The position numbers and the translations under genes are program-made. Shown piece by piece: positions 8,475-62,501 of a DNA stretch of 64,000 nucleotides. Source of the DNA: an uncultured Verrucomicrobiaceae bacterium (GTDB lineage: Bacteria; Pseudomonadota; Gammaproteobacteria; Pseudomonadales; CAMLJR01). The notes beneath the pieces are model-generated. The model was not told the DNA's origin, made no database searches, and saw nothing but the letters and a program-made list of their open reading frames with translations. Every line of letters begins with the position of its first letter. Positions within the stretch are counted from its first letter, which is position 1. The DNA lies in the NCBI GenBank assembly GCA_964515735.1, contig CAZEVP010000003.1:18731-82730 (forward strand). Reading direction: 5' to 3'.

Positions 8475-8633
8475 GGTGGCGGTAAGGCGGCCGGCGAGGA
8501 TGCGCGAATCGGCGTGCCGTCGCAAGGCGCCGCCTTTGACCGGCCCCCCGCGGCGCGGGTTAAATGGCGTATTCCACCGGCGGCACCCGGGCCGTCTGCT
8601 GTGTGGCGCAGTGACGCGCCAGGGAGAGAAAAG

Positions 8634-8906
8634 ATGCGCAACCGTGAACTCGTCGCGTTCATCGCCGACCGCGCCGATCTGCCACTGGCCGATGCCGAGC
8701 GCGCGCTGACGGCGATCTTTCGCGAGATCGGCGCAGCGCTGGCGCATGGCGACAGTGTCAGCCTGGTCGGCTTCGGCACATTCGAGCGGCGCCGGCGCGG
8801 CGCGCGCAGCGGCAAGAATCCACGGACCGGCGCGCCTGTCGAGATCGCGGCGTCGGGCAGCGTCGGCTTCCGACCCGGCAAGCCGTTGCGCGACCTGCTG
8901 AACTGA
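8634..8906 (+). CDS. HU-family nucleoid-associated DNA-binding protein
   Basis: MRNRELVAFIADRADL…VSLVGFGTFERRRRGARSGKNPRTGAPVEIAASGSVGFRPGKPLRD, 90 aa. AGGGAGAG Shine-Dalgarno upstream. Confidence 0.9.
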   Translation: MRNRELVAFIADRADLPLADAERALTAIFREIGAALAHGDSVSLVGFGTFERRRRGARSGKNPRTGAPVEIAASGSVGFRPGKPLRDLLN

Positions 8907-8948
8907 CGCCTCCGGCCCGATCCACCCAACCACCGCAGCGGGAACGCA

Positions 8949-41987: not shown

Positions 41988-42910
41988 GCGCATCGGCCAT
42001 CAGCCATCGCCCGCCGGCGCGACCGCTGCCCTCCCCGGAGCACGATCCGCTGACGGGACACGGCGGCCGTCCCGCCGCCGACCCGCCGGTGCCGGACTGG
42101 GCCAGCCTCGAACTGCCCGACGCCTGGCCCGACCAGCTCGACCTGCGCCGCCCGCGCCAGCTGCTGACACTGCTGCGCGGCATCGCCGGCCGGGGCCGGC
42201 GCGTGCAGCTACCGGAACGGCTGCCGGGCCGCGAGCTGCTGCCGAAATACCTGCTGCAGGAGTTCCACAACCTGCCGAACGGCAACTATTCGCGGCGCAT
42301 CTCGCGCGGCTACCTGACCGGTTTCGACCGCGTCATGCTCGGCCACATGCGAGGCGCCCGCGCCCGCCTCGCCGACTTCCTGCGCGGCTGCGACAGCGCC
42401 ATCGACATCGGCTGCGGCGGTGGTCGCACCGCCGCCGCATTGCGCGAGGCCGGCGTGCGCGAGGTGTGGGGGCTCGACCCGTCGCCGTACCTGCTGCAGC
42501 ACGCCGCGCACGATTTCCCCACGGTCAGGTTCGTGCAGGGGCTGGCCGAGCAGACCGGCTTCCCCGAGCGCCGCTTCGACGGCATCGCCGCCTGCTTCCT
42601 GCTGCACGAACTGCCGCCGCGCCAGACCGGGCACGCGCTGGCCGAGTTCGCGCGCATCCTGCGCCCGGGCGGGCGGCTGGCGATCTGCGAACCGTCGCCG
42701 CTGCAGATGCGCCGGCCCGGCTGGCAGCTGTGGCGGCGCGAGGTCTGGCGCGCGCACTACTTCCACCGGCTGGCGCGGCTGGTGCACGAGCCGTTCATCG
42801 ACGCCTGGCACCGCTGCGATGCGCGCGCCCTGCTCGCCGCGCACGGCTTCGAGCTGGTCGGCGAGGAGCAGCAACTGCCGCTCGCATTCCTGTTCGCGCG
42901 CAAACGGTAG
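41984..42910 (+). CDS. Class I SAM-dependent methyltransferase
   Basis: GTGA overlap with the hemY stop. SAM motif I AIDIGCGGGRTA, and LRPGGRLAICEP. Confidence 0.8.
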   Translation: MSASAISHRPPARPLPSPEHDPLTGHGGRPAADPPVPDWASLELPDAWPDQLDLRRPRQLLTLLRGIAGRGRRVQLPERLPGRELLPKYLLQEFHNLPNGNYSRRISRGYLTGFDRVMLGHMRGARARLADFLRGCDSAIDIGCGGGRTAAALREAGVREVWGLDPSPYLLQHAAHDFPTVRFVQGLAEQTGFPERRFDGIAACFLLHELPPRQTGHALAEFARILRPGGRLAICEPSPLQMRRPGWQLWRREVWRAHYFHRLARLVHEPFIDAWHRCDARALLAAHGFELVGEEQQLPLAFLFARKR

Positions 42911-42916: not shown

Positions 42917-43887
<971 letters not shown>

Positions 43888-43891
<4 letters not shown>

Positions 43892-45072
43892 GCGCGCTGC
43901 TCGCCTGCATCGCCAAGGAGCTGCTGCTGGTGCGGCGCGACCTGCACGGCCTCGCGCTGCTGTTCCTGATGCCGCTGGCGTTCGTGCTGATCATGTCGCT
44001 GGCGATGCAGGAGACCTTCGCCAGCCGCGCCGGCAAACAGGTGCAGGTGCTGCTGGTCGACGCCGATGACAGCGCCGCCTCGAAGCAGCTGGCCGAACGC
44101 ATCGGCAACAGCGGCGCGTTCGCGCTGATCGACGGCGATGGCGCGCAGGTCGACGCGGCGCTGGACGACGGCCGCGCCCATTTCGCGCTGCTGATCGACG
44201 CCGGCTTCGGCGAGCGGCTGCAGCAACCATCCAGCGCCGATGAAGAGCCACTGCTGCGATTGCAGGTGGCACCCGACACGCCGCGCCAGACCGAACAGCT
44301 GCTGCGCGCCGCGCTGCGCGAGGCGCTCGGCCGTCAGCGCGTCGATCTGCTGCTGAGCGCACTGCCGTTCGACACCTCATCGGCACGCGCCGACGATGAC
44401 ACGCTCGCCACTGAAATCGCCGTCACCTATCGCTACCGCGACGACGGCCGCGCGCCGAGCGCGGTGCAGCAGAGCGTGCCGGCGTGGCTGGTGTTCGGCG
44501 TCTTCTTCATCGTCATTCCGCTGTCGAACACGCTGATCCGCGAGCGCGACTGCGGCGCGCTGCGGCGGCTGCGCTCGACCAACCTGACGCCGCTGACGCA
44601 GCTCGGCGCCAAGTGGCTGACCTTCTTCGCGCTCAACCAGCTGCAGGTGGTGGCGATGCTGGCCGCCGGCCGCTACCTGGTGCCGCTGCTCGGCGGCGAG
44701 GCGCTGCAACTGAACGGCTCGATGGCGGCGCTGGCGCTGGTGGCGGCCGCGCTGTCGGTGGCGGCGATCGGCTACGCGCTGCTGATCGCGACGCTGGCGC
44801 GCAGCAGCGAGCAGGCGACACTGGCCGGCGGCGCCGGCAACATCGTGCTGGCGGCGCTCGGCGGCATCATGGTGCCGGCCTTCCTGATGCCGGCGACGAT
44901 GCAGCGGCTGGCCGAGCTGTCGCCGATGGCGTGGGGGCTGCGCGGCTTCCTCGACGTGCTGCTGCGCGGCGGCGGCATCGAACAGGTGTGGCCGGAGGCG
45001 CTGCTGCTGACCGGCTTCGGCGCGGCCGCGCTGGCACTGGCCGGGCTGCGGCTGGCACATGCGAACGAGTGA
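43888..45072 (+). CDS. ABC-2 family transporter permease
   Basis: ATGA overlap with the ATPase gene. N-terminal TM, large loop, then five C-terminal TM segments. Confidence 0.8.
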
Positions 45073-45078: not shown

Positions 45079-45369
45079 ATGACGACCGGAGAACGGGAGC
45101 CGCCCATGGAGCGGGAGACATTGATACGGGCGCTGAAGGCGATGATCGTCGCCGAGTGCGACAAGGAGATCGAACCGGACGAGATCGGCGACGACGAGAC
45201 GCTGATCGGCGGCCCGCTCGCGCTCGATTCGCTCGACGCGCTGCAGATCTGCATGGCGGTCAAGAACCGCTGGGGCGTGCGCATCGAGAGCGGGCCGTCG
45301 GCGCGGCGCGCGCTGCAGAGCGTCGCCACGCTGGCCGACACCATCCTCACCGCCGGGCACGACGCCTAG
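45079..45369 (+). CDS. Acyl carrier protein 1
   Basis: Phosphopantetheine site GGPLALDSLDALQI. The true start may be ATG 45106 (MERETLI). Confidence 0.8.
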   Translation: MTTGEREPPMERETLIRALKAMIVAECDKEIEPDEIGDDETLIGGPLALDSLDALQICMAVKNRWGVRIESGPSARRALQSVATLADTILTAGHDA

Positions 45370-46526
45370 TGTTCGGGCGCGTCCACATCCGCGGCGCCGG
45401 CCTGCACACCGCGCTCGGCGCCGCGCTGCCCGAACAGATCGCGGCACTGCGCCGGCCGCTGGCGCCGGTCGAGCGCGCCGAGGTCGTCTACGCCGATCAG
45501 TGCGAGCGCGTGCCATACCGGCTGCTGGCCGGCCTGCCGCTGCGCGCGCCGGCCGAACGCCTCGAACAGGCACTTCATGGCGCGATCGGCGCCGCGCTCG
45601 ACACGGCCGGCCTCGATGCCGCCCAGCGGCGCCGGCTCGGCCTGTTCGTCGGCACCTCGTCGTTCGACATTTCGGTGTCGGAAGCGCAGTTTCGCGACGA
45701 ACTGCAATGCGACGGCGACGGCGCGATACCGCTGTCGCGCTCCAGCAGCCTCGGCAACCTCGCCGTCGCGCTGCGCCGGCGGTGGGATCTGCGCGGCCCC
45801 GACTTCTCCCTCAACACCGCCTGCACCGCCAGCGCCAACGCGCTGCTGTACGCGGCGCGGATGATCGAGCACGGCGAGCTGGAATCCGCGCTGGTGGTCG
45901 GCCTCGAACTGTGCAACACCGTCACCGCGATGGGCTTCCACGGCCTCGACCTGCTGGCGTCGAACGGCATGCGCCCGTTCGACACCGGGCGCGACGGGCT
46001 GGTGCCGGGCGAGGCGGTCGGCGCGCTGGTGCTGAGCGCGCGGCCCGGGCGTGCAACGTTCCGGCTGCGCGGCGGTGCCACGCTGTGCGACACCCACAGC
46101 ATCTCCGCCGCCAACCCCGACGGCTCGACCGTGGCCGAGGTGATGCGCGCGGCGCTGGCCGACGCCGGCCTCGAACGCGACGACATCGCCGCGCTGAAGA
46201 CGCACGGCACCGCCAGCCTGCTCAACGACGAGGCCGAGGTGGCCGGCATGAAACGGCTGTGGGGCGACGCGCTGCCGCCGCTGTGCGCGCTGAAGCCGTT
46301 CATCGGCCACACCTTCGGCGCCTGCGGCCTCGCCGAGCTGCTGCTGTTCTGCGGCGCCGCCGAACAGGGCTTCCTGCCGCCGCTGCCGGGTATCTGTGCC
46401 GAGCCATCCGACCTCGGCATCCGCCTCGCGCAGGCGCCAACCTCGCAGCCGCCCGGCCACTTCCTGCTGAACTACTTCGGCTTCGGCGGCAACAACACCT
46501 CGCTGGTGGTCGGCAATGTCGACTGA
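45369..46526 (+). CDS. Beta-ketoacyl-ACP synthase (FabB/F-like, APE elongation KS type)
   Basis: GTG start overlapping the ACP stop (TAGTG). Cys-His-His triad contexts NTACTASANAL, KTHGTASLLND, IGHTFGACG. Confidence 0.85.
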   Translation: MFGRVHIRGAGLHTALGAALPEQIAALRRPLAPVERAEVVYADQCERVPYRLLAGLPLRAPAERLEQALHGAIGAALDTAGLDAAQRRRLGLFVGTSSFDISVSEAQFRDELQCDGDGAIPLSRSSSLGNLAVALRRRWDLRGPDFSLNTACTASANALLYAARMIEHGELESALVVGLELCNTVTAMGFHGLDLLASNGMRPFDTGRDGLVPGEAVGALVLSARPGRATFRLRGGATLCDTHSISAANPDGSTVAEVMRAALADAGLERDDIAALKTHGTASLLNDEAEVAGMKRLWGDALPPLCALKPFIGHTFGACGLAELLLFCGAAEQGFLPPLPGICAEPSDLGIRLAQAPTSQPPGHFLLNYFGFGGNNTSLVVGNVD

Positions 46527-47412
46527 CGCGATCGCGATCCGCGGCAGCGGCGACTACTGCGCGGCGGTCGATGCCGACGTGCCGGAATTGAAGGCGCTGG
46601 TGCGCGAGACGCTCGGCGAGCCGGTGCGGCGCATCGGCCGCTTCATCCAGCTGGCGCTGATCGGCGCCGGCCGCTGCGTCGGCGGTGAAACGCTGGCGCC
46701 GGCCACCGCGGTCTACCTGAGCTCCGGCCGCGGCGACCTGGAGATCACCATCGAGGTGATGGAGACGCTGTTCCGCGCCGGCCATTCGCCGATGCCACTG
46801 AGCTTCATCAACACCGTCAGCAACTCGGCCTGCTACTACATCGCGCGCCAGTTCGGCCTGCACGGCCGCTCCAACTTCATCTGCAACCGCCACTTCGCGT
46901 TCGAGAGCGCGCTGCAGCTGGCGCTGCTCGACCTGCGCGCCGGGCTGGTCGACTCGGCGCTGGTCGGCAGCGTCGACGTCGCTGTGGCGCCGCTGCGCGA
47001 CCACCGCCGCCGGCTCGAACTCGCCGCCGATGCCGCGCTGGCGGAGGGCAGCCACTGGCTGTGGCTGCAGCACGCGCCGGCCGGCGACGGCGCGCCGCAA
47101 CTGCTCGACGCACGCCAGTTCGCCGACCGCGCCGACCTCGATGCGTGGCTGCGCACGCTGTCGCCACAACGCACGGCGATCGCGCTGGCCAGCGGGCAGT
47201 TCCTGCCGACGGCCATCGCTGACGACATCGCCGAGGCGCACGGCTTCGACGCGCACTTCGATTACCGCAGCGGGCGCGGCTACTACGACAGCCAGAGCGG
47301 CGCCGTGCTCGGTGCATTCCTGCACCGCGCCGATCCTCGGCCGCTGCTGCTGCACCTGAACGCCGATCCGGACGGCCGCTTCAGCGCGATGCTGGTGCGC
47401 GCACCGCGCTGA
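46516..47412 (+). CDS. Ketosynthase-like partner lacking the canonical active-site motif (chain-length-factor-like)
   Basis: 11-bp overlap with the KS gene. Thiolase-like segments (FINTVSNSACYYIARQFGLHG) without DTACSS- or HGTG-type motifs. Confidence 0.7.
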   Translation: MSTDAIAIRGSGDYCAAVDADVPELKALVRETLGEPVRRIGRFIQLALIGAGRCVGGETLAPATAVYLSSGRGDLEITIEVMETLFRAGHSPMPLSFINTVSNSACYYIARQFGLHGRSNFICNRHFAFESALQLALLDLRAGLVDSALVGSVDVAVAPLRDHRRRLELAADAALAEGSHWLWLQHAPAGDGAPQLLDARQFADRADLDAWLRTLSPQRTAIALASGQFLPTAIADDIAEAHGFDAHFDYRSGRGYYDSQSGAVLGAFLHRADPRPLLLHLNADPDGRFSAMLVRAPR

Positions 47413-48654: not shown

Positions 48655-48696
48655 CCCGTGCAGGAACCGCGGGGTCATTACACACAGATCGACAAG

Positions 48697-48714
48697 GTAA
48701 GGAATAATCCTTAC
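48697..48714. promoter_or_regulatory. Candidate operator palindrome upstream of prlF-yhaV
   Basis: GTAAGGA-ATAA-TCCTTAC, 31 bp upstream of the antitoxin ATG, in an AT-richer patch. Confidence 0.35.
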
Positions 48715-48744
48715 AGTACAGGCATTGCTATCGGGAGAGCCGCC

Positions 48745-49062
48745 ATGCCTGAAATCCATGAAACCGCCACGCTGACGTCCAAGGGCCAGATCACGCTGCC
48801 CAAGTCCATCCGGCAGGTGTTGGGCGTGGACACTGGCGGCAAGGTAGCCTTCGATCTGCGTGGAGGCGAGGTCGTCGTGACGCGTGCCGACGCCGGGCAT
48901 GAAGACCCGGCCATCGGCGCCTTTCTGGGTCTGCTGGAGGCGGACATCCGCGCCGGCCGGCATGTCCGGTCCCTGCCGGAGGATCTCGCCCACGCCATGC
49001 TGGCACGTGCCGGTCAGGCGGTGGACCTGGATGAAGATATTGATGGCGAAGTAGCGATCTGA
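48745..49062 (+). CDS. prlF: AbrB/SpoVT-fold antitoxin, PrlF(SohA)-like
   Basis: ATLTSKGQITLPKSIRQVLGV (SpoVT-AbrB swapped hairpin). Acidic C-terminus. Stop overlaps the toxin ATG (TGATG). Confidence 0.8.
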   Translation: MPEIHETATLTSKGQITLPKSIRQVLGVDTGGKVAFDLRGGEVVVTRADAGHEDPAIGAFLGLLEADIRAGRHVRSLPEDLAHAMLARAGQAVDLDEDIDGEVAI

Positions 49063-49544
49063 TGCAGAGACATGGATGGACACTGCTGTTTCACGAGGGC
49101 GTGATCGAGCAGCTGCGCAAGCTGCAAACGGCTGCGGAACGGGCCGAACAGAACGACCCGCAAGGCTTCGAGAGCAACGCCAACGTCAAGCTGTTCCGGG
49201 CGCTGAGCCAGTTGATCATGGAGGTCGTGCCGAGCGCCCCCTCGCGCGACGAGTTTCGTCAGGGCAATACCTTGAGGCCGGCGTTCCGCCACTGGCGGCG
49301 CGCGAAGATTGGACGGCGATTTCGCCTGTTCTTTCGCTACGACGCCAAAGCCAGAGTGATCGTGTACGCGTGGGTCAATGACGAACAGACCCTGCGGTCG
49401 GCAGGCAGCAAGTCCGATCCCTACGCGGTGTTCGAGAGGATGCTCGGTCGTGGCACTCCGCCTGATGATTGGGCGGCGCTGGTAACGGCGAGCCAAGCGG
49501 ATTGGCGCGCAACGGAGAAACGCTCATCACCCGGTAGTGGCTGA
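49062..49544 (+). CDS. yhaV: YhaV-family type II toxin (ribonuclease)
   Basis: GWTLLFHEGVIEQL…FRQGNTLRPAFRHWRRAKIGRRFRLFFRYDAKARVIVYAWVNDEQTLRSAGSKSDPYAVFERML matches the YhaV pattern. Confidence 0.85.
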   Translation: MQRHGWTLLFHEGVIEQLRKLQTAAERAEQNDPQGFESNANVKLFRALSQLIMEVVPSAPSRDEFRQGNTLRPAFRHWRRAKIGRRFRLFFRYDAKARVIVYAWVNDEQTLRSAGSKSDPYAVFERMLGRGTPPDDWAALVTASQADWRATEKRSSPGSG

Positions 49545-49600: not shown

Positions 49601-50590
49601 CTACACAAACCCCTTCAACAACCCCCACACCGCCGCCTCGCGGTCGGCGCAGCGATTGAGAATCGCCGCCAGCTCATCGACGTCGAGTGCGCTGCGGCCG
49701 CGCGCCATCTTGCTGGCGCGCAGCGCGAACAGCCGCCACTCGTCGCCGGCCTCAGTCAGATCGAGCGCTGCCTGCTTCAGCAGGTCGCTGTCGCACAGCT
49801 TCGCCGCCTCCTGCAGGAACGATGCGTAGATGAAACGGAAACCGGCACCGCCGGTGCCGATCTCCTCCTGCATCCGCACGATGTGGGCGAGATAGAGATT
49901 CAGGTGCTCGCGGTCGGCGCCGGGGCGGCCGAGCCTGACGATGCACTTCGCCAGATGGCGGATTCCGCGAATGCCGATCACCGGCAGCGGCGCCTGATTC
50001 ATGATGCGGTGGTTGGCCTTCAGCGCGGCGCGGATCGCCGGGCGCAGGTCGACGTCGGTCGGCACTCGCGTCGGGCGGTACAGCAGCCCGCGCGCCGCCA
50101 GCGCGCCGCGCGCGAAACGCGCCTTGCGCAGATCGGTTGCCGCACAGCGTGCCGTGGTCTCGAACACCGGGTCGGAGATCAGGTAGTCGTCGCCGTCGCG
50201 GCCGTAGACGATCAGGTTGTGCGCGTTGAAGTGGAAGCGCATCTGTTCGGGAAAGTACGGCAGCCAGAACACGCTGGTCTGCAGCCCGGCGATCTGGCCG
50301 CTGTCGAGCAGCGCGTCGAGTTCGCGCATGCCGCGACCGGCGTCGCGGTAGGTGGCGCGCTGCATCGTCACGCCGAGCCGCTGCGCGACGCCCTTGATGA
50401 TGCGGCCGGGCGGCATCCGGTAGGCGATCAGCGGCATCCCGGACAGCTTCACCAGCGGGATGTAGGCGAAGGTCAGCGCGTTGGCGAGGCCGAACGCCAT
50501 CGGCTCGCTGAGCGGCAGGCCGTGGTGGGTGAGCAGGTTCGACACCACGCCGCTTTCGCAGTGGGCCGACTGGCGGTGCTGGTAGTCCAT
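49601..50590 (-). CDS. BtrH_N/DUF4872-type protein (butirosin BtrH-like ACP-dependent transferase fold)
   Basis: N-terminus SAHCESGVVSNLLTHHGLPLSEPMAFGLANALTFAY is the BtrH_N pattern with a catalytic-type Cys. Last gene of the minus-strand dar operon (4-bp gap to the upstream gene). Confidence 0.7.
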   Translation of the reverse strand: MDYQHRQSAHCESGVVSNLLTHHGLPLSEPMAFGLANALTFAYIPLVKLSGMPLIAYRMPPGRIIKGVAQRLGVTMQRATYRDAGRGMRELDALLDSGQIAGLQTSVFWLPYFPEQMRFHFNAHNLIVYGRDGDDYLISDPVFETTARCAATDLRKARFARGALAARGLLYRPTRVPTDVDLRPAIRAALKANHRIMNQAPLPVIGIRGIRHLAKCIVRLGRPGADREHLNLYLAHIVRMQEEIGTGGAGFRFIYASFLQEAAKLCDSDLLKQAALDLTEAGDEWRLFALRASKMARGRSALDVDELAAILNRCADREAAVWGLLKGFV

Positions 50591-50594
50591 CGGA

Positions 50595-51008
50595 TCAGAT
50601 CGTCTCGGAAGAGTCCGGCAGCGACTGCAGCTCGGCGACGCTCAGGCCGAGCGCCTCGGCGTAGCGAGCCAGCAGCCGCGGCGACAGCCGGGCGAAGCGG
50701 CGCGGGTCGAAGTGGCGGCGGATGCGCCACTGCCACAGGCCGCTGGTCTGCGCCAGCAGCGCCAGATCCATGCGGCGGCGGTACATGTGGAATTCGAGCG
50801 GCGCGGTGTCACCGCGCCGGGCGCGCGCCCAAGCGTCGTCGCGCTGGCGGTTGACGGCATCGATCGCCGCCTGTGTCGCCGCGGTCTCGACCTCCCAGCC
50901 GGCGGAGTGGACGCCGCCGTAGTCGCCGCGCTCGTCGACGGCGTAGAACAGCTTGCGCTGACCGCCGTAGTTGGGCGACGGATCCTGCGGCACCTCCTCC
51001 TTTTTCAT
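50595..51008 (-). CDS. 137-aa protein of unknown function with possible C-terminal HTH
   Basis: Lies 4 bp after the darB stop and 4 bp before the BtrH-like ATG. C-terminal MDLALLAQTSGL…LLARYAEALGLSVAELQ looks XRE-HTH-like. N-terminal half is unrecognised. Confidence 0.5.
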   Translation of the reverse strand: MKKEEVPQDPSPNYGGQRKLFYAVDERGDYGGVHSAGWEVETAATQAAIDAVNRQRDDAWARARRGDTAPLEFHMYRRRMDLALLAQTSGLWQWRIRRHFDPRRFARLSPRLLARYAEALGLSVAELQSLPDSSETI

Positions 51009-51012: not shown

Positions 51013-53244
51013 TCAGACAGCCGTCAGCTGCAGCAGCGCGGCCGAGAAGCGGCCGCTCTCCGGCACCCAGCACAGCAGCCGCTGGCCGCGCTCGATGCGG
51101 CCGCTGCGGCGCAGTTCGTCGAGGATGATGTAGATCGATGCGGCGCCGGTGTTGCCGCGCTCGGTCAGATTGGTGAACCAGCGCGATTGCGGAATCTCGA
51201 ATTCCGCATTGCGCAGGCCGTCGAGCACGCGGTCGCGGAAGTAGTTCGACGAGTAGTGCGGCAGGAACCAGTCGATGTCGCTGGCCCGCAGGCCGCGCTT
51301 CTGTTGCAGCACGCGCAGCGGTTTCTCGACCGTGTAATGCACGATGTGATCGTTCAGCAGCTTCACGTCCTGCTTGACCGCCAGCACCGACACCGCGTTG
51401 CGCTGTTCGGGGTCGAGCATGGCCCAGCCGGTCAGCGTGCCGTCGTCGTTCTTGACGGCGCCGGCGTACATGCAGGCTTCCATCTCGCCGGCATACGAGA
51501 AGATGTCGATCCAGTCGATGCGCAGGTTGAGCTGGCCCGGCTTCGGCTCGGGCCGCAGCAACGCGGCGCCGGCGCCGTCGGAGAGCATCCAGCGCAGGAA
51601 ATCCTTCTCGAATGCCAGCTCGGGTCGTTTCTCCAGGACATCGGCGTCGGCTTCGAACGCCGCCACCGCTTCGCCCTGATAGTTGCGTGCGCACAACATC
51701 GACGACGACAGCTCGGAGCCGGTGGCGATGGCACTGTCGTGCTGGCCCGAGGCCACCGCCATCCAGCCGTACTTCAGCGCGCTGACACCGCTGACGCAGA
51801 CGCCGCCGGTGGCGACCGTCTCCAGCACCGGCAGCTTCAGTTCGCCCTGCACCATCACCGCATGGTTCGGCATCAGCTGGTCCGGAATCGACGTGCCGCA
51901 GCCGAGGCAGCCGAGCTGGCTCAGGTCGAAATCGGCATCGCTGGCGAGCCTGCGCACCGCCGCCGCCGTCAGCGAGGCGTTGCTGTGGGTGGCGGCGCCG
52001 GTGCGCGGATCGATCGCGTAGTGACGGCTGCGGATGCCGTTGCTGCGCAGGATGGTGCGGCGCGCGCGCGACGGCCGCTCGCCGACCTGGCCGAGCACCT
52101 GCTCCATGCGGTCGTTGTCGACCGGCTCGTTCGGCAGGAAGGCGGCGGTGTCGGTGATGTAGACGCTACGGCTCATGCGGGGCGGTCTGCTCTGGCGATG
52201 TCTGTGAAAACGGTCGATGAAAATAGTCGGTAAAAGAGCGCAACGACGGCTCAGGCCGCGCCGGCCGCATCGGGCCGCATCGGGCCGCTGCAGCGGCAGC
52301 GGCTCGGGCGCGCGCTCCTCGCCGGACGGCGCCGCGAAATAGGCGCGCTGACGCGCGATGCGCGCGCGCGTCAGCGGTGCCAGCAGCCGCTTGATGACGG
52401 CGCTGAGCGGCACCACGGTCAGGATCAGCGTCACCAGGAACACGACGTAGAACACCAGCACCGCGCGCCGCAGCGGCGTGCCCGGCTTGCCGAGCGCGCG
52501 CAGCAGGCCGCCCCAGATGCGGAAGCTGCGGCGCGCGATCGTCTCCGAGGCGATCAACCGCTCGTTGATCGTCACCGCGCCGAGGCCGCGCAGCATCGGC
52601 GAGTCGTCGGCGGCATCGCGCTGCGGCAGCTGCGCGGCGATGGCGCGACCGAAACGGGCGGCATCGTCGATGTCGGCGCGGGTCACGCCGGCCTCCGGAA
52701 TCAGCCCGCCGAGCAGCGCGTTGCTCTTGCCGGTCAGCATCCAGCGCGGCGTCGAGATGAAGGTGAAGGCGCTGTGGCAGCTGTCGGTCAGCACGACGTT
52801 GTCGACCAGCCGCGCGCCGAGGCGTTGCAGGTGCTCCTTGACGATCTCCTGCGCCATCAGCCACATGTTGCGGCAGCCGATCAGCGTGATCACCGGCTTG
52901 CCGCGCAGCAGCCTCAAAGCCTGTTCGCTCTGCAGGAACGCCGTGGTCGGCAGCGATGGCGACAGGAACCAGACCTGGTAGGCGAGGATGACCAGATCGA
53001 ATTCAGCGTCGTCGGCGATGTCGAGCGGTTCGATCGGCGCGCTCTCGGTGTCGCCGTAAACCGTCTCCGGGAAGGTGTCGAAGAAGCGCCAGAACGGCCA
53101 CGGAAACGGGAACGGCCGGCGCGGGCGGACTACCGCCGTCGTCAGCGCGATGTCCGGGCTGGCCGCCAGCGGCGCGCAGACCGACCGCACGATCTCGCCG
53201 AGCTGGCCCGATTGCGAAAAATGGATGACGAGAACTCGTTTCAT
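51013..53244 (-). CDS. darAB: DarA-DarB fused reading frame (flavodoxin-like DarA module + KAS III-like dialkylresorcinol condensing enzyme DarB)
   Basis: DarA part is MKRVLVIHFSQSGQLGEIV… DarB part starts at internal ATG 52176 (MSRSVYITDTAAFLPNEPV) with Cys-His-Asn contexts GGVCVSG, LPHYSS, RGNTGAAS. There is no stop between them in this sequence. Confidence 0.75.
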   Translation of the reverse strand: MKRVLVIHFSQSGQLGEIVRSVCAPLAASPDIALTTAVVRPRRPFPFPWPFWRFFDTFPETVYGDTESAPIEPLDIADDAEFDLVILAYQVWFLSPSLPTTAFLQSEQALRLLRGKPVITLIGCRNMWLMAQEIVKEHLQRLGARLVDNVVLTDSCHSAFTFISTPRWMLTGKSNALLGGLIPEAGVTRADIDDAARFGRAIAAQLPQRDAADDSPMLRGLGAVTINERLIASETIARRSFRIWGGLLRALGKPGTPLRRAVLVFYVVFLVTLILTVVPLSAVIKRLLAPLTRARIARQRAYFAAPSGEERAPEPLPLQRPDAARCGRRGLSRRCALLPTIFIDRFHRHRQSRPPRMSRSVYITDTAAFLPNEPVDNDRMEQVLGQVGERPSRARRTILRSNGIRSRHYAIDPRTGAATHSNASLTAAAVRRLASDADFDLSQLGCLGCGTSIPDQLMPNHAVMVQGELKLPVLETVATGGVCVSGVSALKYGWMAVASGQHDSAIATGSELSSSMLCARNYQGEAVAAFEADADVLEKRPELAFEKDFLRWMLSDGAGAALLRPEPKPGQLNLRIDWIDIFSYAGEMEACMYAGAVKNDDGTLTGWAMLDPEQRNAVSVLAVKQDVKLLNDHIVHYTVEKPLRVLQQKRGLRASDIDWFLPHYSSNYFRDRVLDGLRNAEFEIPQSRWFTNLTERGNTGAASIYIILDELRRSGRIERGQRLLCWVPESGRFSAALLQLTAV
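52263..52288. repeat. 10-bp unit GGCCGCATCG in 2.6 tandem copies at the darA/darB junction
   Basis: 52263-52272 and 52273-52282 are identical, followed by the partial copy GGCCGC. Deleting one unit restores an in-frame TGA (TCA at 52251-52253) for darA. Confidence 0.9.
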
Positions 53245-53326
53245 CAACGAGCGCTTCCCTCTCAACTGGATGGACGCCCTGTTATCTCCCGCCGGCGGCG
53301 CAGGCCGCCGCACCGCGGGGGCCGGA

Positions 53327-53623
53327 TTATGACACGCCCGTGACCAGCGTCAGCTGCCCCTCGGCCAGCGGCTCGGCACCGACGCGGCAGACGAAACGCA
53401 AACCGCCATTGCGCGGCTCCGCCCAATGCACCTCGAACGGCTCGCCGCCGCGCAGTGGCCGCAGGAACTTCAGCTTGCGCACGCCGGTGGCTCGCAGCTG
53501 TGGCCGCTCGACGGCGAGCCGCAACAGCAGGCGGTCGAGAATGACCACAGCCGGCACCAGCGGCTGCCCCGGGAAATGGCCCGGCAGCGCGGGGTGGTCG
53601 GCTTCGATCTGCAGTGTCGGCAT
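53327..53623 (-). CDS. Small hot-dog-fold (FabA/FabZ-like) dehydratase
   Basis: HPALPGHFPGQPLVPAVVILD, a FabZ-like HxxxGHFPxxPxxPG motif. 98 aa. First gene of the minus-strand operon. Confidence 0.7.
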   Translation of the reverse strand: MPTLQIEADHPALPGHFPGQPLVPAVVILDRLLLRLAVERPQLRATGVRKLKFLRPLRGGEPFEVHWAEPRNGGLRFVCRVGAEPLAEGQLTLVTGVS

Positions 53624-53700
53624 CGGCGGCTCCTCGGCGGGCGGCCATTATAAGGAAGCGCGGCGCTGCTAGAATCCGCCACCTCGCCACCGGAGCCGCC
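53624..53700. promoter_or_regulatory. Divergent promoter region of the pigment cluster
   Basis: 77-bp spacer between divergent dehydratase genes. TGCTAGAAT extended -10-like element at 53667-53675 (+) with TTATAA about 16 bp upstream. Confidence 0.3.
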
Positions 53701-54135
53701 ATGACCACGCTCGACCGCCAACAGATCGCCGCCCGCATCCCGCACGCCGGCCGCATGTGCCTGCTGGAACGGGTCGAGCACTGGAGCGAGTGCGACATCG
53801 GCTGCATCGCCACCGGCCACCGCGATCCGGACAACCCGCTGCGCAGCGGCGACCGACTGCCGGTCACCGCCGGCATCGAGTACGCGGCGCAGGCGATGGC
53901 GGTGCACGGCAGCCTGGTGGAGCCGGTCGACGGCCCGCCACGACGCGGTTACCTCGCCGTACTGAGCCGGGTCGAGTGGACCGTCGAGCAGCTCGATGAC
54001 ATCGGAGGCCCGCTACGGGTGGAAGCGGTGCGCGAGACCGTCATCGACGGCGGCCGCAGCTACCGCTTCGCGGTGCACGGTGACGGGCGGCTGCTGCTCA
54101 GCGGTGCCGCGGTGATCGCTCTCGAACCGGCGTGA
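53701..54135 (+). CDS. Hot-dog-fold dehydratase-like protein
   Basis: IPHAGRMCLLERV…TAGIEYAAQAMAVHG pattern of APE-cluster dehydratase/thioesterase-fold proteins. Start at ATG 53701. Confidence 0.65.
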   Translation: MTTLDRQQIAARIPHAGRMCLLERVEHWSECDIGCIATGHRDPDNPLRSGDRLPVTAGIEYAAQAMAVHGSLVEPVDGPPRRGYLAVLSRVEWTVEQLDDIGGPLRVEAVRETVIDGGRSYRFAVHGDGRLLLSGAAVIALEPA

Positions 54136-54333
54136 CCGTCGCGCCGGTGACCGGGGTACACGGCGAGGTGTGGTATTCTTCGCGCCGTTTTCAGGGGTTC
54201 GAAGGCAGCGCCCACACCGCCGTCCGCGCCAGATCGCGGCGGTGCCACGCATAACGATCAGCGGGCGCTCCGCCATGGGGCGTCGGTCGCGACAGCGCGG
54301 CCGACAGGACAGTGACGTTTTCCACTTTTCAGA

Positions 54334-55059
54334 ATGCACGCAGTGCTCTCTCTTTCTCTGCTCCGCTGGTCCGCCTGGACGCCGGGAGTGGCCAGTGCCG
54401 ACGAATGGCGCGTCTGGCTGCGCGACCCGGCCACAGCCAGTGCCGATGCCGCCGCGCCGAAGGTCGACTTCGTGCCGCCGCTGCTGCGCCGGCGGCTGTC
54501 GACGCTGAGCCGCGCCGCGCTGGCGGTGGCCGCCGACTGCCTCGGCGACGAGCGCAGCGACTGCCGCACGATCTTCGCCTCGCCGCACGGTGAGGTGGCC
54601 CGCACCGTCGAACTGCTGCAACAGCTGGCGGCCGCCGAGCCGCTGTCGCCGAACGCCTTCAGCCTCTCCGTGCACAACACCGCCTCCGGCCTGTTCGCGA
54701 TGGCGACCGGCAACCGCTCCGCCTCGACCGCGCTGGCCGCGGGCCGCGACACGCTGCCGCTGGCCTTCGTCGAGGCCGCCGGCCGGCTGGCGCGCGACCC
54801 GCAGCCGCTGCTGCTGGTGTTCGCCGACGAGCCGCTGCCCGATTTCTACCGGCACTGGCAGCCGCAACCGGCGCGGGCCTTCGCGCTGGCGCTGCTGCTG
54901 GCCCCGGCGCCGGGTGCGGCGGTACTGACGCTGAGCCGCGCCGACACCGCTGCCGCTACCCCGGCCGACCCGCTGGCGCTGCTGCCGCTGCTGCTCGACG
55001 ATGCCGACCAGGCCCGCTGCGGCGGCGAGCGCGGCGGCTGGCGCTGGCAGCGGTCATGA
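54334..55059 (+). CDS. Beta-ketoacyl synthase N-terminal-like protein (Ketoacyl-synt_2 type)
   Basis: LRWSAWTPGV…FVPPLLRRRLSTLSRAAL…LSPNAFSLSVHNTASG is typical of the KS-like protein that opens APE-type operons. No catalytic Cys context. Confidence 0.7.
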   Translation: MHAVLSLSLLRWSAWTPGVASADEWRVWLRDPATASADAAAPKVDFVPPLLRRRLSTLSRAALAVAADCLGDERSDCRTIFASPHGEVARTVELLQQLAAAEPLSPNAFSLSVHNTASGLFAMATGNRSASTALAAGRDTLPLAFVEAAGRLARDPQPLLLVFADEPLPDFYRHWQPQPARAFALALLLAPAPGAAVLTLSRADTAAATPADPLALLPLLLDDADQARCGGERGGWRWQRS

Positions 55060-55979
55060 GCGGGAAGCCGGACATGGCGCTGGAGACGCCGCGCGCGAGC
55101 CGCCCCCGGGGCGTGGCCGCGCTCGGCTACTGGGCCAACTACGGCTGGCGCGTGGTCGCCACCGGCTACAATTTCGCGTTCTTTTTCATCGGCGGGCTGG
55201 TGCTGGCGCTGACGGCGCTGCCGCTGGCGCGGCTGCTGCCGGGCACGGCGGCGCGCAAGAACGAGCGCGCCCGCGCAGTCGTGCACCGCATCTTCCGCTA
55301 CTTTGTCTGGCAGATGCAGGTCACCGGCTGCATCCGCGTCGAGGTGCGCGACCGCGCGCGGCTCGACGCCTGCGACGGCCTGCTGGTGGTGGCGAACCAC
55401 CCGACGCTGATCGACGTCGTGCTGCTGATCGCGCTGTTGCCGCGCGCCAGCTGCGTGGTCAAGGCCGAGCTGTTCCGCAGCGCGACGCTGCGCGGCGTGG
55501 TCCGCGCCACCGGCTACATCAGCAATTCGGACCCCGAGTCGCTGCTGCGGCAGTGCCGCGACAGCTTCGCAGCCGGCCAGTCGATCATCGTGTTCCCGGA
55601 GGGGACGCGCAGCCGCACCGGCGAACCGTTGCAGTTCCAGCGCGGCGCGGCGCAGATCGCGGTGCGCTGCAACGCCGACGTCGCGCCGGTGCTGATCACC
55701 TGCGAGCCGCCGATGCTGCGCAAGGGCGAGCCGTGGTACCGGGTCCCGCCGCGCCGCGGCGAGATCGTCGTGCAGCCGCTGCCGCGCTGGCCGCTGGCCG
55801 AGCTGATCGACACCGGCGCGCCGCCGCCGCTGGCGACGCGCCAGCTCAACCGCGCGCTCGAGGCACGCTTTCGCGCGCTGCTCGGGCAGCAACCCGCAAC
55901 CAATGCGTCCACGCCGGCCGGCGCGGGCGCGACCACCGGCCCCGACGGGGCCACACAACGAGTGTGCAGCAATGTCTGA
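55056..55979 (+). CDS. Lysophospholipid (PlsC-type) acyltransferase
   Basis: ATGA overlap. N-terminal TM. HX4D box VVANHPTLIDV and FPEGTRS box. Confidence 0.85.
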   Translation: MSGKPDMALETPRASRPRGVAALGYWANYGWRVVATGYNFAFFFIGGLVLALTALPLARLLPGTAARKNERARAVVHRIFRYFVWQMQVTGCIRVEVRDRARLDACDGLLVVANHPTLIDVVLLIALLPRASCVVKAELFRSATLRGVVRATGYISNSDPESLLRQCRDSFAAGQSIIVFPEGTRSRTGEPLQFQRGAAQIAVRCNADVAPVLITCEPPMLRKGEPWYRVPPRRGEIVVQPLPRWPLAELIDTGAPPPLATRQLNRALEARFRALLGQQPATNASTPAGAGATTGPDGATQRVCSNV

Positions 55980-56232
55980 CCTGGCAACGGAACTGAAACA
56001 ACTGATCATCGACTGCCTCGATCTCGAGGAAATCGGCGTCGACGACATCGACAGCGACGCACCGCTGTTCGTCGACGGCCTCGGCCTCGACTCGATCGAC
56101 GCGCTGGAGCTCGGGCTGCACATCCAGAAGCGCTACAACATCAAGCTCGACGCCAACTCGGCCGAGACCAAACAGCACTTCGCGTCGGTCAACGCGCTGA
56201 AGGCGCTGATCGAATCGCACCAGCCGGCCTGA
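55972..56232 (+). CDS. Acyl carrier protein 2
   Basis: VDGLGLDSIDALEL phosphopantetheine site. 8-bp overlap with the acyltransferase gene. Confidence 0.85.
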   Translation: MSDLATELKQLIIDCLDLEEIGVDDIDSDAPLFVDGLGLDSIDALELGLHIQKRYNIKLDANSAETKQHFASVNALKALIESHQPA

Positions 56233-56252
56233 CAGTGACGGAAGAGAGCCCC

Positions 56253-56501
56253 ATGAACGACCGCGACACGATTTTCGCCGAGCTGCGCCGCATCCTGGCC
56301 GAATCCTTCGAGATCGAGCCCGACAGCATCACGCTGCAGTCCGGCCTCTACGACGACCTCAAGCTCGACTCCATCGACGCCATCGACCTGATCGTCAGCG
56401 TGCAGGAACTGATCGGCCGCAAGGTGCAGCCGGAGCAGTTCAAGAACGCGCGCACGGTCAGCGACGTGGTGGAGATCGTGCATCAGCTGATCCACGGCTG
56501 A
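56253..56501 (+). CDS. Acyl carrier protein 3
   Basis: DDLKLDSIDAIDLI site. ATG 56253 behind GAAGAGAG. The ORF-track GTG at 56235 is an alternative start. Confidence 0.85.
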   Translation: MNDRDTIFAELRRILAESFEIEPDSITLQSGLYDDLKLDSIDAIDLIVSVQELIGRKVQPEQFKNARTVSDVVEIVHQLIHG

Positions 56502-56509
56502 CACAGCCG

Positions 56510-57091
56510 ATGAGCCGACTCGGCCGCCTCGGCGCACCGCTGCTCGGCGCGCTGCTGCTGCTCTACCCCGCCGCGGTCTTCTACGGCCTGCAGCACGGTT
56601 CGGCGCGTCTGGTCGGGCTGCTGCTCGGCGCCGCCGTGGTCGCGCGCTGGTGGCTGCTGCGCGGCCGGCCGGTGGCCGGGCTGACGCCGGTGCTGCTGGC
56701 CGGGCTCGGCTGCGCGCTGGCGGCATCGATCGCCGACAGCGGCATCGCGCTGCGGCTGCTGCCGGTGCTGGTCTCGCTGATCATGCTGGCGACGTTCGGC
56801 TACACGCTGTGGCGGCCGCCGAGCATGGTCGAACGCTTCGCGCGCGCCATCGAGCGCGACGAACTGCCGCCGCAGGCGATCGCCTACACGCGCCGCGTCA
56901 CCCAGGTCTGGTGCCTGTTCTTCATCGTCAACGGGGCGATCGCGCTCTACACCGCGCTGTTCGCCCCGCTCGCGCTGTGGACGCTCTACAACGGCCTGAT
57001 CTCGTACCTGCTGATGGGGCTGCTGTTCGCCGGCGAGTGGCTGGTGCGCCGGCGCTTCCAGCGGCGGCTGCGCGGGGAGATCGCACCATGA
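56510..57091 (+). CDS. Integral membrane protein of APE-type clusters (COG4648-like)
   Basis: Five to six TM segments. Conserved-looking MVERFARAIERDELPPQAIAYTRRVTQVWCLFFIVNG. Confidence 0.65.
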   Translation: MSRLGRLGAPLLGALLLLYPAAVFYGLQHGSARLVGLLLGAAVVARWWLLRGRPVAGLTPVLLAGLGCALAASIADSGIALRLLPVLVSLIMLATFGYTLWRPPSMVERFARAIERDELPPQAIAYTRRVTQVWCLFFIVNGAIALYTALFAPLALWTLYNGLISYLLMGLLFAGEWLVRRRFQRRLRGEIAP

Positions 57092-58821
57092 CGGCGACGC
57101 TCGCCACGCTGCTGGCCAGCGCGCGTGCCGACGACCATCCGGTCGCGCTGCGCCCCCACCCGGCCCTGCCGGAAAAAGAGCCGCAGTCGCTGTACTGGCG
57201 CGACCTGCGCGCCGCCGTCGCCGCCACGATCGACGCCTTAAAAGAACAGCCCGGCGGCCGCTGGGCGCTGTACGACAGCGACACCTTCCGCTTCGCCGCC
57301 GGCCTGCTGGCACTGCTGCACAGCGGCCGCACACCGCTGCTGCCCGGCAACGCGCAGCCCGGCACGCTGCGCGAACTGGCGCCGCAGGTGCAGGGTTTTC
57401 TCGGCGAGCTGCACGGCGTCGATGCCATCGCCATCGGCGACGGCGGCGATGCGAATGACACCAGCGCCGCGCTGCCCGCGATCGCCGCCGACGCGACGAT
57501 CGAGCTGATGACCTCCGGCTCGACCGGCGACGCCAAACGCATCGTCAAGCGACTGGCGCAACTCGACACCGAGGTCGCCTGCCATCTGCACGCGTGGCGC
57601 GACCTCATCGACGAACGCACGCTGTTCGTCGCCAGCGTCAGCCACCAGCACATCTACGGCCTGCTGTTCCGGCTGCTGCTGCCGCTGCTGCGCGGCGCGC
57701 CGTTCACGACCCAAACCTTCGACTACAACGAATCGCTCTACGCCAGCGCCGCTGCCAGCGACAGGGCAGTCGTCGTCACCAGCCCGGCGCATCTGACGCG
57801 GCTGCCGCCGGCGCTCGACGGCGACGCGGTGCGGCCGCGACTGGCGCTGCTGCTGTCATCGGGCGGGCCGCTGCCGGCCGCCGCCGCGCGGCAGGCACTG
57901 GCGCTGTTCGGGCAGGTGCCGCTGGAGATCTTCGGTTCCACCGAAACCGGCGGCATCGCCTGTCGTCGCCAGAACGAAAACGACCGCTGGCAGCCACTGC
58001 CCGGCGTCGACATCGGGATCGACGACGACGGCCTGCTGCTGGTGCGCTCGGCGTGGGCCGACGGCGGCGAGCAACGCACCGCCGACCGCGCACGGCGCGA
58101 CGATGACGGTCGCTTCGCGCTGCTCGGCCGCGCCGACACCGTGGTCAAGATCGAAGAGAAGCGACTCAGCCTCGACGAGATGAACCGGCGCCTGCGCGAA
58201 CACCCGCTGGTGGTCGATGCGCGCGCCGTGCTGCTGCCGGAGCGGCGGCGGCTCGGCGCCGTCGTCGCGCTCACCGATGCCGGCCGCGCGCGGGCGCAGC
58301 GCGATCGCGCCGCCGTGATCGCCGACCTGCGCGACCATCTCGGCCAGTTCTTCGAACGCACGCTGCTGCCGCGCAAATGGCGACTGCCCGACGCGCTGCC
58401 GCAGGATGCGCAGGGCAAGGTGACGCTGCGCGCGCTGCAGGCACTGTTCGCCCCGTCACCCACGGAGCCGCCCGGCGAGCTGCTGAGCCGCGACGAGAAC
58501 AGCTGCGACATCGCCATCGACCTGCGCCGCTGCGCGCAGGTGTTCGACGGCCACTTCCCGGGGCTGCCGGTACTGCCCGGCGTCTACCAGCTCGACTGGG
58601 CGATACGCCACGCGCGCCGCCACCTGCTGCCGCCGTCGCTGCGCTTCGTCGCCGTCGACCAGCTGAAATTCTCCGAGGCGATCGCGCCCGACCTGCCGCT
58701 GACGCTGCGGCTGACCCGCAGCGGCGAGCGTGTCGAATTCGCCTACCGCTGCGGCGCGCTGCCGCTCTCCAGCGGCCGCATCCAGTTCGCGGCCGACGAC
58801 GACGGGGAGACGGCAGCGTGA
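57088..58821 (+). CDS. AMP-dependent (adenylate-forming) ligase fused to a C-terminal hot-dog domain
   Basis: ATGA overlap. MTSGSTGDAKRI (AMP-binding P-loop), GSTETGGIA. C-terminal FDGHFPGLPVLPGVYQLDW dehydratase-like module. Confidence 0.85.
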   Translation: MTATLATLLASARADDHPVALRPHPALPEKEPQSLYWRDLRAAVAATIDALKEQPGGRWALYDSDTFRFAAGLLALLHSGRTPLLPGNAQPGTLRELAPQVQGFLGELHGVDAIAIGDGGDANDTSAALPAIAADATIELMTSGSTGDAKRIVKRLAQLDTEVACHLHAWRDLIDERTLFVASVSHQHIYGLLFRLLLPLLRGAPFTTQTFDYNESLYASAAASDRAVVVTSPAHLTRLPPALDGDAVRPRLALLLSSGGPLPAAAARQALALFGQVPLEIFGSTETGGIACRRQNENDRWQPLPGVDIGIDDDGLLLVRSAWADGGEQRTADRARRDDDGRFALLGRADTVVKIEEKRLSLDEMNRRLREHPLVVDARAVLLPERRRLGAVVALTDAGRARAQRDRAAVIADLRDHLGQFFERTLLPRKWRLPDALPQDAQGKVTLRALQALFAPSPTEPPGELLSRDENSCDIAIDLRRCAQVFDGHFPGLPVLPGVYQLDWAIRHARRHLLPPSLRFVAVDQLKFSEAIAPDLPLTLRLTRSGERVEFAYRCGALPLSSGRIQFAADDDGETAA

Positions 58822-62053: not shown

Positions 62054-62069
62054 GAACGCGGAAAAACCG

Positions 62070-62501
62070 ATGGACAAAGACCAGAAACTGAGCGCCGACG
62101 TACTGATCCAGATTCCGTTCCACGACTGCGACATGATGCGCATCGTCTGGCACGGCCATTACACGAAGTACTTCGAGATCGCGCGCTGCGCGCTGTTCGA
62201 CCTGATCGACTACAACTACGCCACGATGGAAGCGTCGGGCTATGCGTGGCCGATCGTCGAGTGCCAGCTGAAATACATCCGCCCTGCCCACTTCGGCTCG
62301 CGCGTGCGCGTGCGCGCGACGCTGACCGAGTACCAGAACCGCCTCGGCGTCGACTACCTGATCACCGACGACGCCAGCGGCGAGCGGCTGACCAAGGGAC
62401 GCAGCCTGCAGGTCGCGGTCGACATGAAGAACGGCGAGCTGCAGTTCGCCACACCGCCGATCCTGACGGAGAAGATCGAATGCGCGCTGCGCCGGCTCTG
62501 A
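62070..62501 (+). CDS. 4HBT/YbgC-type acyl-(CoA/ACP) thioesterase
   Basis: IPFHDCDMMRIVWHGHYTKYFE (hot-dog thioesterase with catalytic Asp context). Confidence 0.85.
   Translation: MDKDQKLSADVLIQIPFHDCDMMRIVWHGHYTKYFEIARCALFDLIDYNYATMEASGYAWPIVECQLKYIRPAHFGSRVRVRATLTEYQNRLGVDYLITDDASGERLTKGRSLQVAVDMKNGELQFATPPILTEKIECALRRL

Follow-up and report, generated by a model that had tools for sequence, protein, structure and literature searches.

Flexirubin-type pigments are chemotaxonomic markers and membrane antioxidants, and the order of the genes darG and darH in Chitinophaga, Flavobacterium and Azoarcus was given in two papers from 2014. The dar genes of Chitinophaga pinensis comprise darA, darB, darG (hypothetical), darH (a protein with a BtrH N-terminal domain), darI and darJ (ABC transporter), darC, darD and darE, and the darG and darH of F. 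johnsoniae are Fjoh_1098 and Fjoh_1097, respectively (PMC12968099, Table 3 legend). The dar locus of Azoarcus BH72 consists of darA, darB, darD (azo0291, conserved hypothetical), darE (azo0290, 'BtrH-like peptidase'), an ATP-binding cassette (ABC) transporter ATPase, a toxin-antitoxin pair, an ABC permease, darC (acyl carrier protein, ACP), darJ (ketosynthase) and darK (PMC3949708, Table 1). Here we describe two minus-strand open reading frames (ORFs), encoding proteins of 137 and 329 amino acids (aa), on a stretch of 64,000 nucleotides (nt) of contig CAZEVP010000003.1 (the whole stretch is referred to as the window). These are almost certainly darG and darH, standard members of an extended dar module made up of darA, darB, darG, darH, the ABC ATPase and permease, darC, darD and darK.

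The first-pass annotation of this DNA had not recognised the pairing of the two genes as part of canonical APE or Dar clusters. That it lies outside canonical Dar clusters was not borne out, as the pair corresponds to darG and darH of C. pinensis and F. johnsoniae and to darD and darE of Azoarcus BH72, and both products match curated NCBIfam models. The pairing is already known and named, and is a routine instance of curated families from which the sequence alone teaches little that is new; it is the biochemical job of the pair that is of interest. The module resembles the flexirubin clusters of Chitinophaga and Flavobacterium in possessing darA-darB-darG-darH, the ABC genes, darC and darD. 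It differs from them in that the ABC-darC-darD-darK block is inverted and convergent, in that darA and darB are fused and in that DarG falls below a flexirubin-specific equivalog model. With the arcuflavin dar locus of Azoarcus BH72 it shares the same pair straight after darA-darB (darD and darE in that organism, where the names 'darG/darH' denote the Phd/PIN toxin-antitoxin genes), the genes for the ABC ATPase and permease, darC, a ketosynthase and darK, and an interruption by a toxin-antitoxin pair, which is PrlF/YhaV in the window. In Azoarcus, however, dar is unlinked to the polyene (arc) loci and the hydroxybenzoate is XanB2-derived (PMC3949708), whereas in the window there are adjacent ape genes and a tyrosine ammonia-lyase gene. 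The darABC(+darSR) genes of Pseudomonas chlororaphis, for 2-hexyl-5-propylresorcinol, share the DarA, DarB and DarC chemistry of the resorcinol core, but are without darG, darH, ABC genes, darD and darK and yield a free dialkylresorcinol (DAR) (PMC6403133); from this contrast, the hybrid pigment and not ring formation would seem to be what DarG and DarH are for. The minus-strand genes of the window are as follows.

49601-50590, minus strand: darH, 329 aa, predicted BtrH-type papain-like transacylase (NF053550, Pfam, AlphaFold2 (AF2) model, Foldseek, conserved triad)
50560-50558, 50221-50219 and 50173-50171, minus strand: codons of the putative triad Cys11, His124 and Asp140 of DarH, respectively
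50595-51008, minus strand: darG, 137 aa (NF053536; AF2 and Foldseek, helix-turn-helix (HTH)-like domain)
51013-53244, minus strand: darA-darB, a single ORF (NCBIfam StlD/DarB family, TBLASTN, junction compared with the related locus L001)
approximately 53244 to 52312, minus strand: DarA part of this ORF, followed by a 45-aa linker (52311-52177) and the DarB part (Met at 52176, to 51013)
53327-53623, minus strand: hotdog (FabZ/ApeI-like) dehydratase, 98 aa, upstream of darA (weak FabA/FabZ matches)

The order given by the first-pass annotation, namely dehydratase, darA(-)darB, a gene for 137 aa and a BtrH_N/DUF4872 gene, was thus found again. All four ORFs had a GC content at third codon positions (GC3) of approximately 0.9, the value that marks genuine genes in this window of about 70% GC. 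The junctions of darB with darG (TGA-AGCG-ATG) and of darG with darH (TGA-TCCG-ATG) both leave a gap of exactly 4 nt, as had also been noted earlier.

In a scan of one genome per species, at least 598 confirmed DarH matches were obtained, and the best 80 loci were taken with 10-kb flanks. Neighbours in these loci were called by TBLASTN with the proteins of the window, many of the exceptions being cut by contig ends. DarG was found directly upstream of DarH in 75 of the 80 loci, the order DarB-DarG-DarH in 71 and DarA-DarB-DarG-DarH in 66, in Gamma-, Beta- and Alphaproteobacteria, Campylobacterota, Desulfobacterota, Leptospirales, Planctomycetota and Acidobacteriota. A linkage of the pair with darAB in other genomes, on which the first-pass annotation had let its proposal for the two genes depend, is thus conserved. 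Estimated gaps among the 75 related loci were mostly -5 to +15 nt for DarG-DarH and mostly -11 to +12 nt for DarB-DarG, and the tight spacing of darB, darG and darH is not due to chance. The ABC genes were present in 67/80 loci, and darC, darD and the darK-like gene were conserved beside them in 48-67/80, the ABC genes, darC and darD accompanying the module in approximately 65-67 loci. Markers of the ape type lay within 10 kb in 28 of the 55 loci with full flanks; the tie of DarH to darAB is very strong and that to the polyene genes is looser.

The DarG-DarH pair can also occur away from darAB, as shown by two of the loci. In L066, from a Syntrophaceae metagenome-assembled genome (MAG), the pair (7095-10978) follows genes for a ketosynthase, a lysophospholipid acyltransferase and a PlsY-like acyltransferase, and the 10 kb upstream and 2.4 kb downstream of it contain neither DarA nor DarB. 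In the Desulfocapsa locus L048, a methyltransferase gene and housekeeping genes precede DarG-DarH-ABC.

Comparison of DarH with NCBIfam gave a score of 479 bits to NF053550 ('BtrH-related acyltransferase DarH', equivalog cutoff of 300), with residues 2-325 spanning positions 1-324 of the 325 in the profile. The term 'acyltransferase' in this database name rests on homology. Pfam identified BtrH_N at residues 10-141 (E-value 4e-49, a full-length match) and DUF4872 at residues 153-322 (E-value 3e-50), and the family was found to comprise at least 7,962 clusters at 90% identity. The AF2 model, made from an alignment of 26 sequences (pLDDT 83, pTM 0.85), has an alpha/beta N-terminal domain and a C-terminal domain of six helices. 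When this model was compared with the PDB using Foldseek, AziU2/U3 was the best match (E-value 5e-10, TM-score 0.70), followed by CtaG (E-values of approximately 1e-7 to 1e-8) and CcbD, including its complex with a peptidyl carrier protein (PCP) domain (approximately 1e-5). These were the only proteins with an E-value below 1e-3, over a range of 5e-10 to 5e-5 with TM-scores of 0.55-0.70, and the next match had an E-value above 0.1. A search of all PDB chains with the DarG and DarH sequences and the DarH profile gave no meaningful match, the profile reaching only unrelated chains at E-values of 0.2 or weaker. The tie of DarH to CtaG, CcbD and AziU2/U3 thus emerges from the predicted structure alone. 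No membrane or signal segment and no fusion to a transporter was found in DarH.

The putative triad C11, H124 and D140 was conserved at 97% or more for each residue among 81 sequences, so the catalytic cysteine context, which the first-pass annotation had named as another point on which its proposal would stand or fall, is intact. Catalytic variants of CtaG in the PDB are C11A, H128A and D144N, and the spacing of 16 between His and Asp equals that of H124 and D140 in DarH. A second conserved motif of DarH, RMQEEIGTGGxGFR (residues 239-252), lies in the helical domain. CtaG, AsbE, BtrH and MllDE have been placed in a single class, that of protease-like transacylases which depend on a carrier protein and have in common a Cys-His-Asp triad and helices in the C-terminal region (PMC12865890, 2026). 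On the predicted structure, DarH is a protein of this papain-like, BtrH-type transacylase fold, in agreement with the earlier assignment of the 329-aa protein as BtrH-type. It resembles BtrH (butirosin), AsbE (petrobactin), CtaG (closthioamide) and CcbD (celesticetin) in having BtrH_N, with CtaG and CcbD among its top structural matches. Unlike DarH, for which a phenolic hydroxyl is proposed below as the acceptor, the characterised members acylate amines, and none has been reported with a DarG-like partner.

DarG matched NF053536 ('DarG family dialkylresorcinol biosynthesis protein') with 170.1 bits against a cutoff of 70, and fell below the flexirubin_DarG equivalog NF053545 (129.6 bits against a cutoff of 170), which places it in the wider proteobacterial branch. 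The family was represented by 541 clusters at an E-value of 1e-3 or lower among 1.84 billion proteins, almost all of its members being stand-alone proteins of 130-145 aa. With Pfam no family was matched at E-values up to 10, HTH models included, and the sequence gave no match in the PDB at the same limit. In the AF2 model of DarG (42 sequences), residues 1-35 are of low confidence, although the N-terminal part contains the invariant positions P7, G16, Y22, A23, G28, S35, G37, W38 and E41. A long helix (38-64) leads to a five-helix, XRE-type HTH-like domain at residues ~66-130 (nt 50813-50619), with pLDDT above 94 for residues 50-130. The top Foldseek matches were all HTH proteins of the Cro/C1/XRE type, namely ClgR, C.AhdI, 434 Cro and repressor, SinR and DdrO, with E-values that were modest (0.02-0.1) but consistent, target TM-scores of 0.6-0.72, a probability of approximately 1.0 and a root-mean-square deviation of about 2 Å over 58-60 residues (2.0 Å over 58 for C.AhdI). 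Equal scores were obtained in the fold search for HTH-like domains that do not bind DNA, namely those of the enzymes HppE, HEPD and MPnS. At the level of the predicted fold, DarG is thus supported as having an XRE-type HTH-like C-terminal part and an N-terminal part that is conserved yet uncertain in the model, much as the first-pass annotation had described the 137-aa protein. It differs from the XRE/Cro-C1 HTH proteins, and from the HTH-like domains of HppE, HEPD and MPnS, by the extra conserved N-terminal segment, the long helix and the lack of a profile match.

The step that joins polyene to resorcinol in flexirubin-type pigments is one for which DarH is a plausible and well-founded candidate. 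DarH would be cytoplasmic and papain-like, with Cys11, His124 and Asp140 as its triad, and would belong to the fold class of BtrH, CtaG, CcbD and AsbE. As in these enzymes, an acyl group would pass from a carrier protein to the active-site cysteine and on to an acceptor. The finished aryl-polyenoyl chain would be taken from one of the ACPs of the cluster (three genes, at 45079, 55903 and 56235) and handed to the dialkylresorcinol that DarB and DarA produce, at one of its hydroxyls, giving the ester that defines flexirubin-type pigments. Once formed, the lipid would be handled by the DrrAB-like ABC transporter whose genes lie nearby. DarG, translationally coupled to DarB and DarH, would most likely work through its conserved N-terminal segment, as a small partner or adaptor for DarH, its XRE-like helical domain being used as a protein or ligand module and not as a classical repressor. 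The identities, fold class, triad conservation and synteny have been given above; the donor, the acceptor, the formation of an ester and the DarG-DarH partnership are what we infer beyond these.

Comparison with simpler systems is consistent with such a role. The free-DAR producer P. chlororaphis possesses only darABC and two regulators (PMC6403133), DAR was made in E. coli from darA and darB alone (PMC3992019, PMC3949708), and the apeA-R cluster of E. coli, which is for an aryl polyene (APE) only, contains neither a BtrH-like gene nor a DarG gene (PMC8253772, Table 1). As both types of cluster lack darG and darH, neither half would require these genes when made by itself; hybrid producers do have them (PMC3949708, Table 1; PMC12968099, Table 3 legend). 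DarH was also the only protein with a predicted transacylase fold within the extended dar module. Given this, and with BtrH, AsbE and CcbD as ACP-dependent precedents, O-acyl transfer from aryl-polyenoyl-ACP to DAR would be the single most likely reaction, for which we would nonetheless allow somewhat less than an even chance. The pair in L066, with no DarAB nearby, was also counted for the formation of an ester by DarH. The fuller proposition, in which DarH forms the ester as the first O-acylating, aryl-ester member of the BtrH/CtaG class and works as an obligate pair with DarG as a non-DNA-binding adaptor of XRE fold, is a doubtful one. If ester formation by DarH is true, the class of protease-like transacylases would be extended from amide to ester formation.

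Several points weigh against an ester-forming DarH. No experiments on any DarG or DarH were found in the searchable literature. The characterised members of the fold class all acylate amines to give amides, an aryl ester being a reaction that would be new to them, and AziU2/U3, the best structural match, is not a transacylase (PMC12865890). Alternatively, the ester could be the product of the ApeD-like (55056-55979) or ApeJ-like (58818-60524) acyltransferase of the window, both of them conserved among flexirubin clusters, and the flexirubin paper of 2014 conjectured that another, ligase-like enzyme, FlxW, is the connecting enzyme. A strain positive in the potassium hydroxide (KOH) colour test was reported to have no BLAST matches to darG or darH (PMC12968099, Table 3), which has little weight since the test does not show a DAR ester; KOH-negative species of Cellulophaga are likewise without darG or darH, which, being based on BLAST (E-value below 1e-3) and a colour test, also has little weight (PMC12968099). 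Furthermore, the linkage of DarH to darAB, much closer than that to the ape genes, is just as compatible with a role in the DAR branch.

In such a role, DarH would serve the DAR branch and the ester would be made by the ApeD- or ApeJ-like acyltransferases. DarH may then be a thioesterase-like off-loader that frees a carboxy-cyclohexanedione or DAR intermediate from DarC or coenzyme A (CoA), or a transacylase that moves fatty-acyl or beta-ketoacyl groups between AcpP or CoA and DarC and so feeds DarD, DarK and DarB. The genomic context agrees with this, with darA and darB beside DarH in 71/80 loci, darC, darD and the ABC genes in about 65/80, ape-type markers no further than 10 kb away in only about half of the fully flanked loci, and the dar locus of Azoarcus apart from both arc loci (PMC3949708). 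The CtaG fold is known to work between two carrier proteins (PMC12865890), and acyltransferases of the ApeD/ApeJ type are the proposed APE-attaching enzymes in E. coli (PMC8253772), a division of labour that would also accord with the amide chemistry of the characterised relatives. Nevertheless, free DAR arises in the absence of DarH both in P. chlororaphis and in E. coli given darAB alone, which implies that off-loading or priming by DarH is not chemically required, homologues of ApeD and ApeJ occur in APE-only clusters as well and so leave a DAR-specific step unexplained, and the pair in L066 stands without DarAB over the distances searched. We regard a role in the DAR branch as the main alternative, less likely than not and somewhat less probable than the ester step. 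Far more improbable is a function as a C39-like accessory of the adjacent ABC exporter, in which DarH would process or hand over the lipid cargo and not build it. The C39 and C70 peptidases, next to which BtrH_N has been placed, typically go together with ABC transporters (PMC10318531), and the ABC ATPase gene directly follows DarH on the same strand in 29/80 loci; however, in 36 loci the ABC genes are on the opposite strand and convergent, as in the window, the nearest solved folds are biosynthetic transacylases and not C39 domains, and DarH has neither a membrane or signal segment nor a fusion to a transporter.

For DarG, the evidence leans towards a partner protein over a regulator, with no point being decisive. 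Were DarG a genuine DNA-binding autoregulator of the XRE family acting on the dar operon, DarH would act alone. The predicted C-terminal fold, with its likeness to ClgR, C.AhdI, 434 Cro and repressor, SinR and DdrO, is compatible with this, as are the conserved glycine of the turn (G90) and the basic third helix (W94, R95, R98 and H99). A modest basicity of the C-terminal half (median net charge of +4) also weighs against the partner role, while the family as a whole has a median isoelectric point of 6.7, which does not favour a regulator. The missing Pfam HTH match and the equally good fold matches to the non-DNA-binding domains of HppE, HEPD and MPnS also speak against DNA binding, and a mid-operon gene with overlapping or 4-nt junctions across several phyla would be unusual for a regulator. 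Among the regions 5' of darA in 68 loci, searched by k-mers and gapped palindromes against shuffles, no palindrome was clearly above the shuffled controls and the only common element was a promoter-like -10 element, which gives no support for a conserved DarG binding site. Regulation by DarG is therefore regarded as unlikely, and the mid-operon place, the lack of an HTH profile match and of a palindrome, and one natural fusion lead us to lean towards a partner protein. In this fusion, P0261 (L081, 305-1753), DarG and DarH are joined in frame in a protein of 482 aa with a linker of approximately 25 residues. It favours the partnership but is a single sequence, situated at the end of one 134-kb contig with unrelated genes downstream. 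Conservation of the N-terminal segment of DarG despite its low confidence in the model is what one would expect if it folded on a partner. Two other candidate DarG fusions, P0351 and P0363, were left out because they resemble chimeras produced by a frameshift or by assembly.

The remaining features of the locus are as follows.

41984-42910, plus strand: class I S-adenosylmethionine (SAM) methyltransferase, between hemY and the ABC ATPase gene
42917-43891 and 43888-45072, plus strand: ABC transporter ATPase and ABC-2 permease, respectively, the equivalents of darI/darJ (NCBIfam DrrA-type ATPase and ABC-2 permease matches)
45079-45369, plus strand: darC, acyl carrier protein
45366-46526, plus strand: darD, ketosynthase
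46516-47412, plus strand: darK-like ketosynthase (KS)-related protein, 298 aa
47497-48654, plus strand: L,D-transpeptidase (YkuD with LysM), in the gap between darK and darH
48658-49544, plus strand: PrlF (AbrB/MazE-type) antitoxin and YhaV toxin, between darH and the remaining dar module
53326-53353, minus strand: promoter-like site CTGACG-16-CATAAT with upstream TG, just 5' of darA
53614-62501, plus strand: divergent aryl-polyene (ape-type) operon, in the order of E. coli apeC-apeK (PMC8253772, Table 1)
55056-55979, plus strand: ApeD-like lysophospholipid acyltransferase
57088-58821, plus strand: aryl-activating AMP-ligase fused to an ApeI-like dehydratase domain (ApeH-ApeI fusion)
58818-60524, plus strand: ApeJ-like glycosyltransferase family 2 (GT2)/LpxL-type acyltransferase
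60458-62053, plus strand: tyrosine ammonia-lyase

The block of ABC genes, darC, darD and darK on the plus strand converges on darH. The ape-type operon begins with a dehydratase and a ketosynthase-chain length factor (KS-CLF, ApeC-like), followed by the ApeD-like acyltransferase, two ACPs, a membrane protein at the position of ApeG, the AMP-ligase/ApeI-like fusion, the ApeJ-like protein, the tyrosine ammonia-lyase and an ApeK-like thioesterase. The gene for the ammonia-lyase is inserted between the ApeJ-like and ApeK-like genes, which implies a flexirubin-style initiation with 4-coumarate in a proteobacterial ape cluster. As darA and darB were found together with ape-type genes and genes for an aryl starter unit, as in APE-DAR hybrids of the flexirubin/arcuflavin type, the locus is, judged on its gene content, a hybrid cluster on the chromosome for an aryl-polyene/dialkylresorcinol pigment, the initiation of which is predicted to be flexirubin-like and tyrosine-derived. 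Further left are housekeeping genes, among them argH, a LytTR two-component pair, hemCDXY and spoT. A viral or defence-system origin was set aside, the flanks consisting of housekeeping (argH, hemCDXY, spoT) and biosynthetic genes.

The start of darA is most likely the ATG at 53244 (MKRVLVIHF), which follows a GAGAGGGAAG ribosome-binding region and is situated approximately 80 nt past the stop of the dehydratase gene. The full open frame that holds DarA and DarB extends from 53313 to 51013 on the minus strand. A promoter-like extended -10 element (TGTCATAAT) overlaps the stop codon of the dehydratase gene. An extended -10-like element, TG(T/G)GCATAATCC, was also identified 5' of darA in 20 other loci (L001-L003, L007, L016-L019, L024-L028, L030, L034, L035, L037, L042, L045 and L046), its version in the window being TGTCATAATCC, and this shared element suggests that darA-B-G-H has a promoter of its own. 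Just upstream of it, a AGAATTCT palindrome was observed in several Pseudomonas loci. The hotdog dehydratase gene was found at the same place and on the same strand in L001, L004, L005, L008, L010, L033 and L065.

The C-terminal half of the fused ORF matched the StlD/DarB family with 570 bits (NCBIfam cutoff of 450). Comparison of the darA-darB junction with that of the closest relative, L001 (approximately 90% identical), revealed an insertion of about 110 nt of lower GC content that replaces the overlapping stop and start GCATGAG and so brings DarA in frame with DarB through the 45-aa linker. None of the 66 other loci carrying both genes had such a fusion, which could be a real recent event or a sequence error.

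As called, the starts of the divergent dehydratase ORFs of 98 aa and 173 aa overlap by 10 nt (53614-53623). The 173-aa ORF probably starts later, near MTTLDRQQ, which would leave a short divergent promoter region. Inverted repeats in the divergent region of the window were inside the dehydratase gene and had no evident meaning.

The closest relative of the whole locus is L001 (CAYLRA010000029.1), with a DarH that is 92% identical and the same context next to hemY. It is labelled as an uncultured Verrucomicrobiaceae MAG, a bin label that looks doubtful given the synteny of the window (argH, algZ/algR-like, hemCDXY) and the gammaproteobacterial origin of all other close relatives of DarH. The host genome of the window, with 70% GC, is probably gammaproteobacterial. 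The methyltransferase gene at 41984-42910 is absent from L001, where hemY abuts the ABC gene, and its presence here suggests that the cluster of the window may make a methylated variant. The PrlF/YhaV pair is also absent from L001. The L,D-transpeptidase gene is kept at the same place in L001 (75% identity), and a peptidoglycan-binding protein is also included in the arc locus of Azoarcus.

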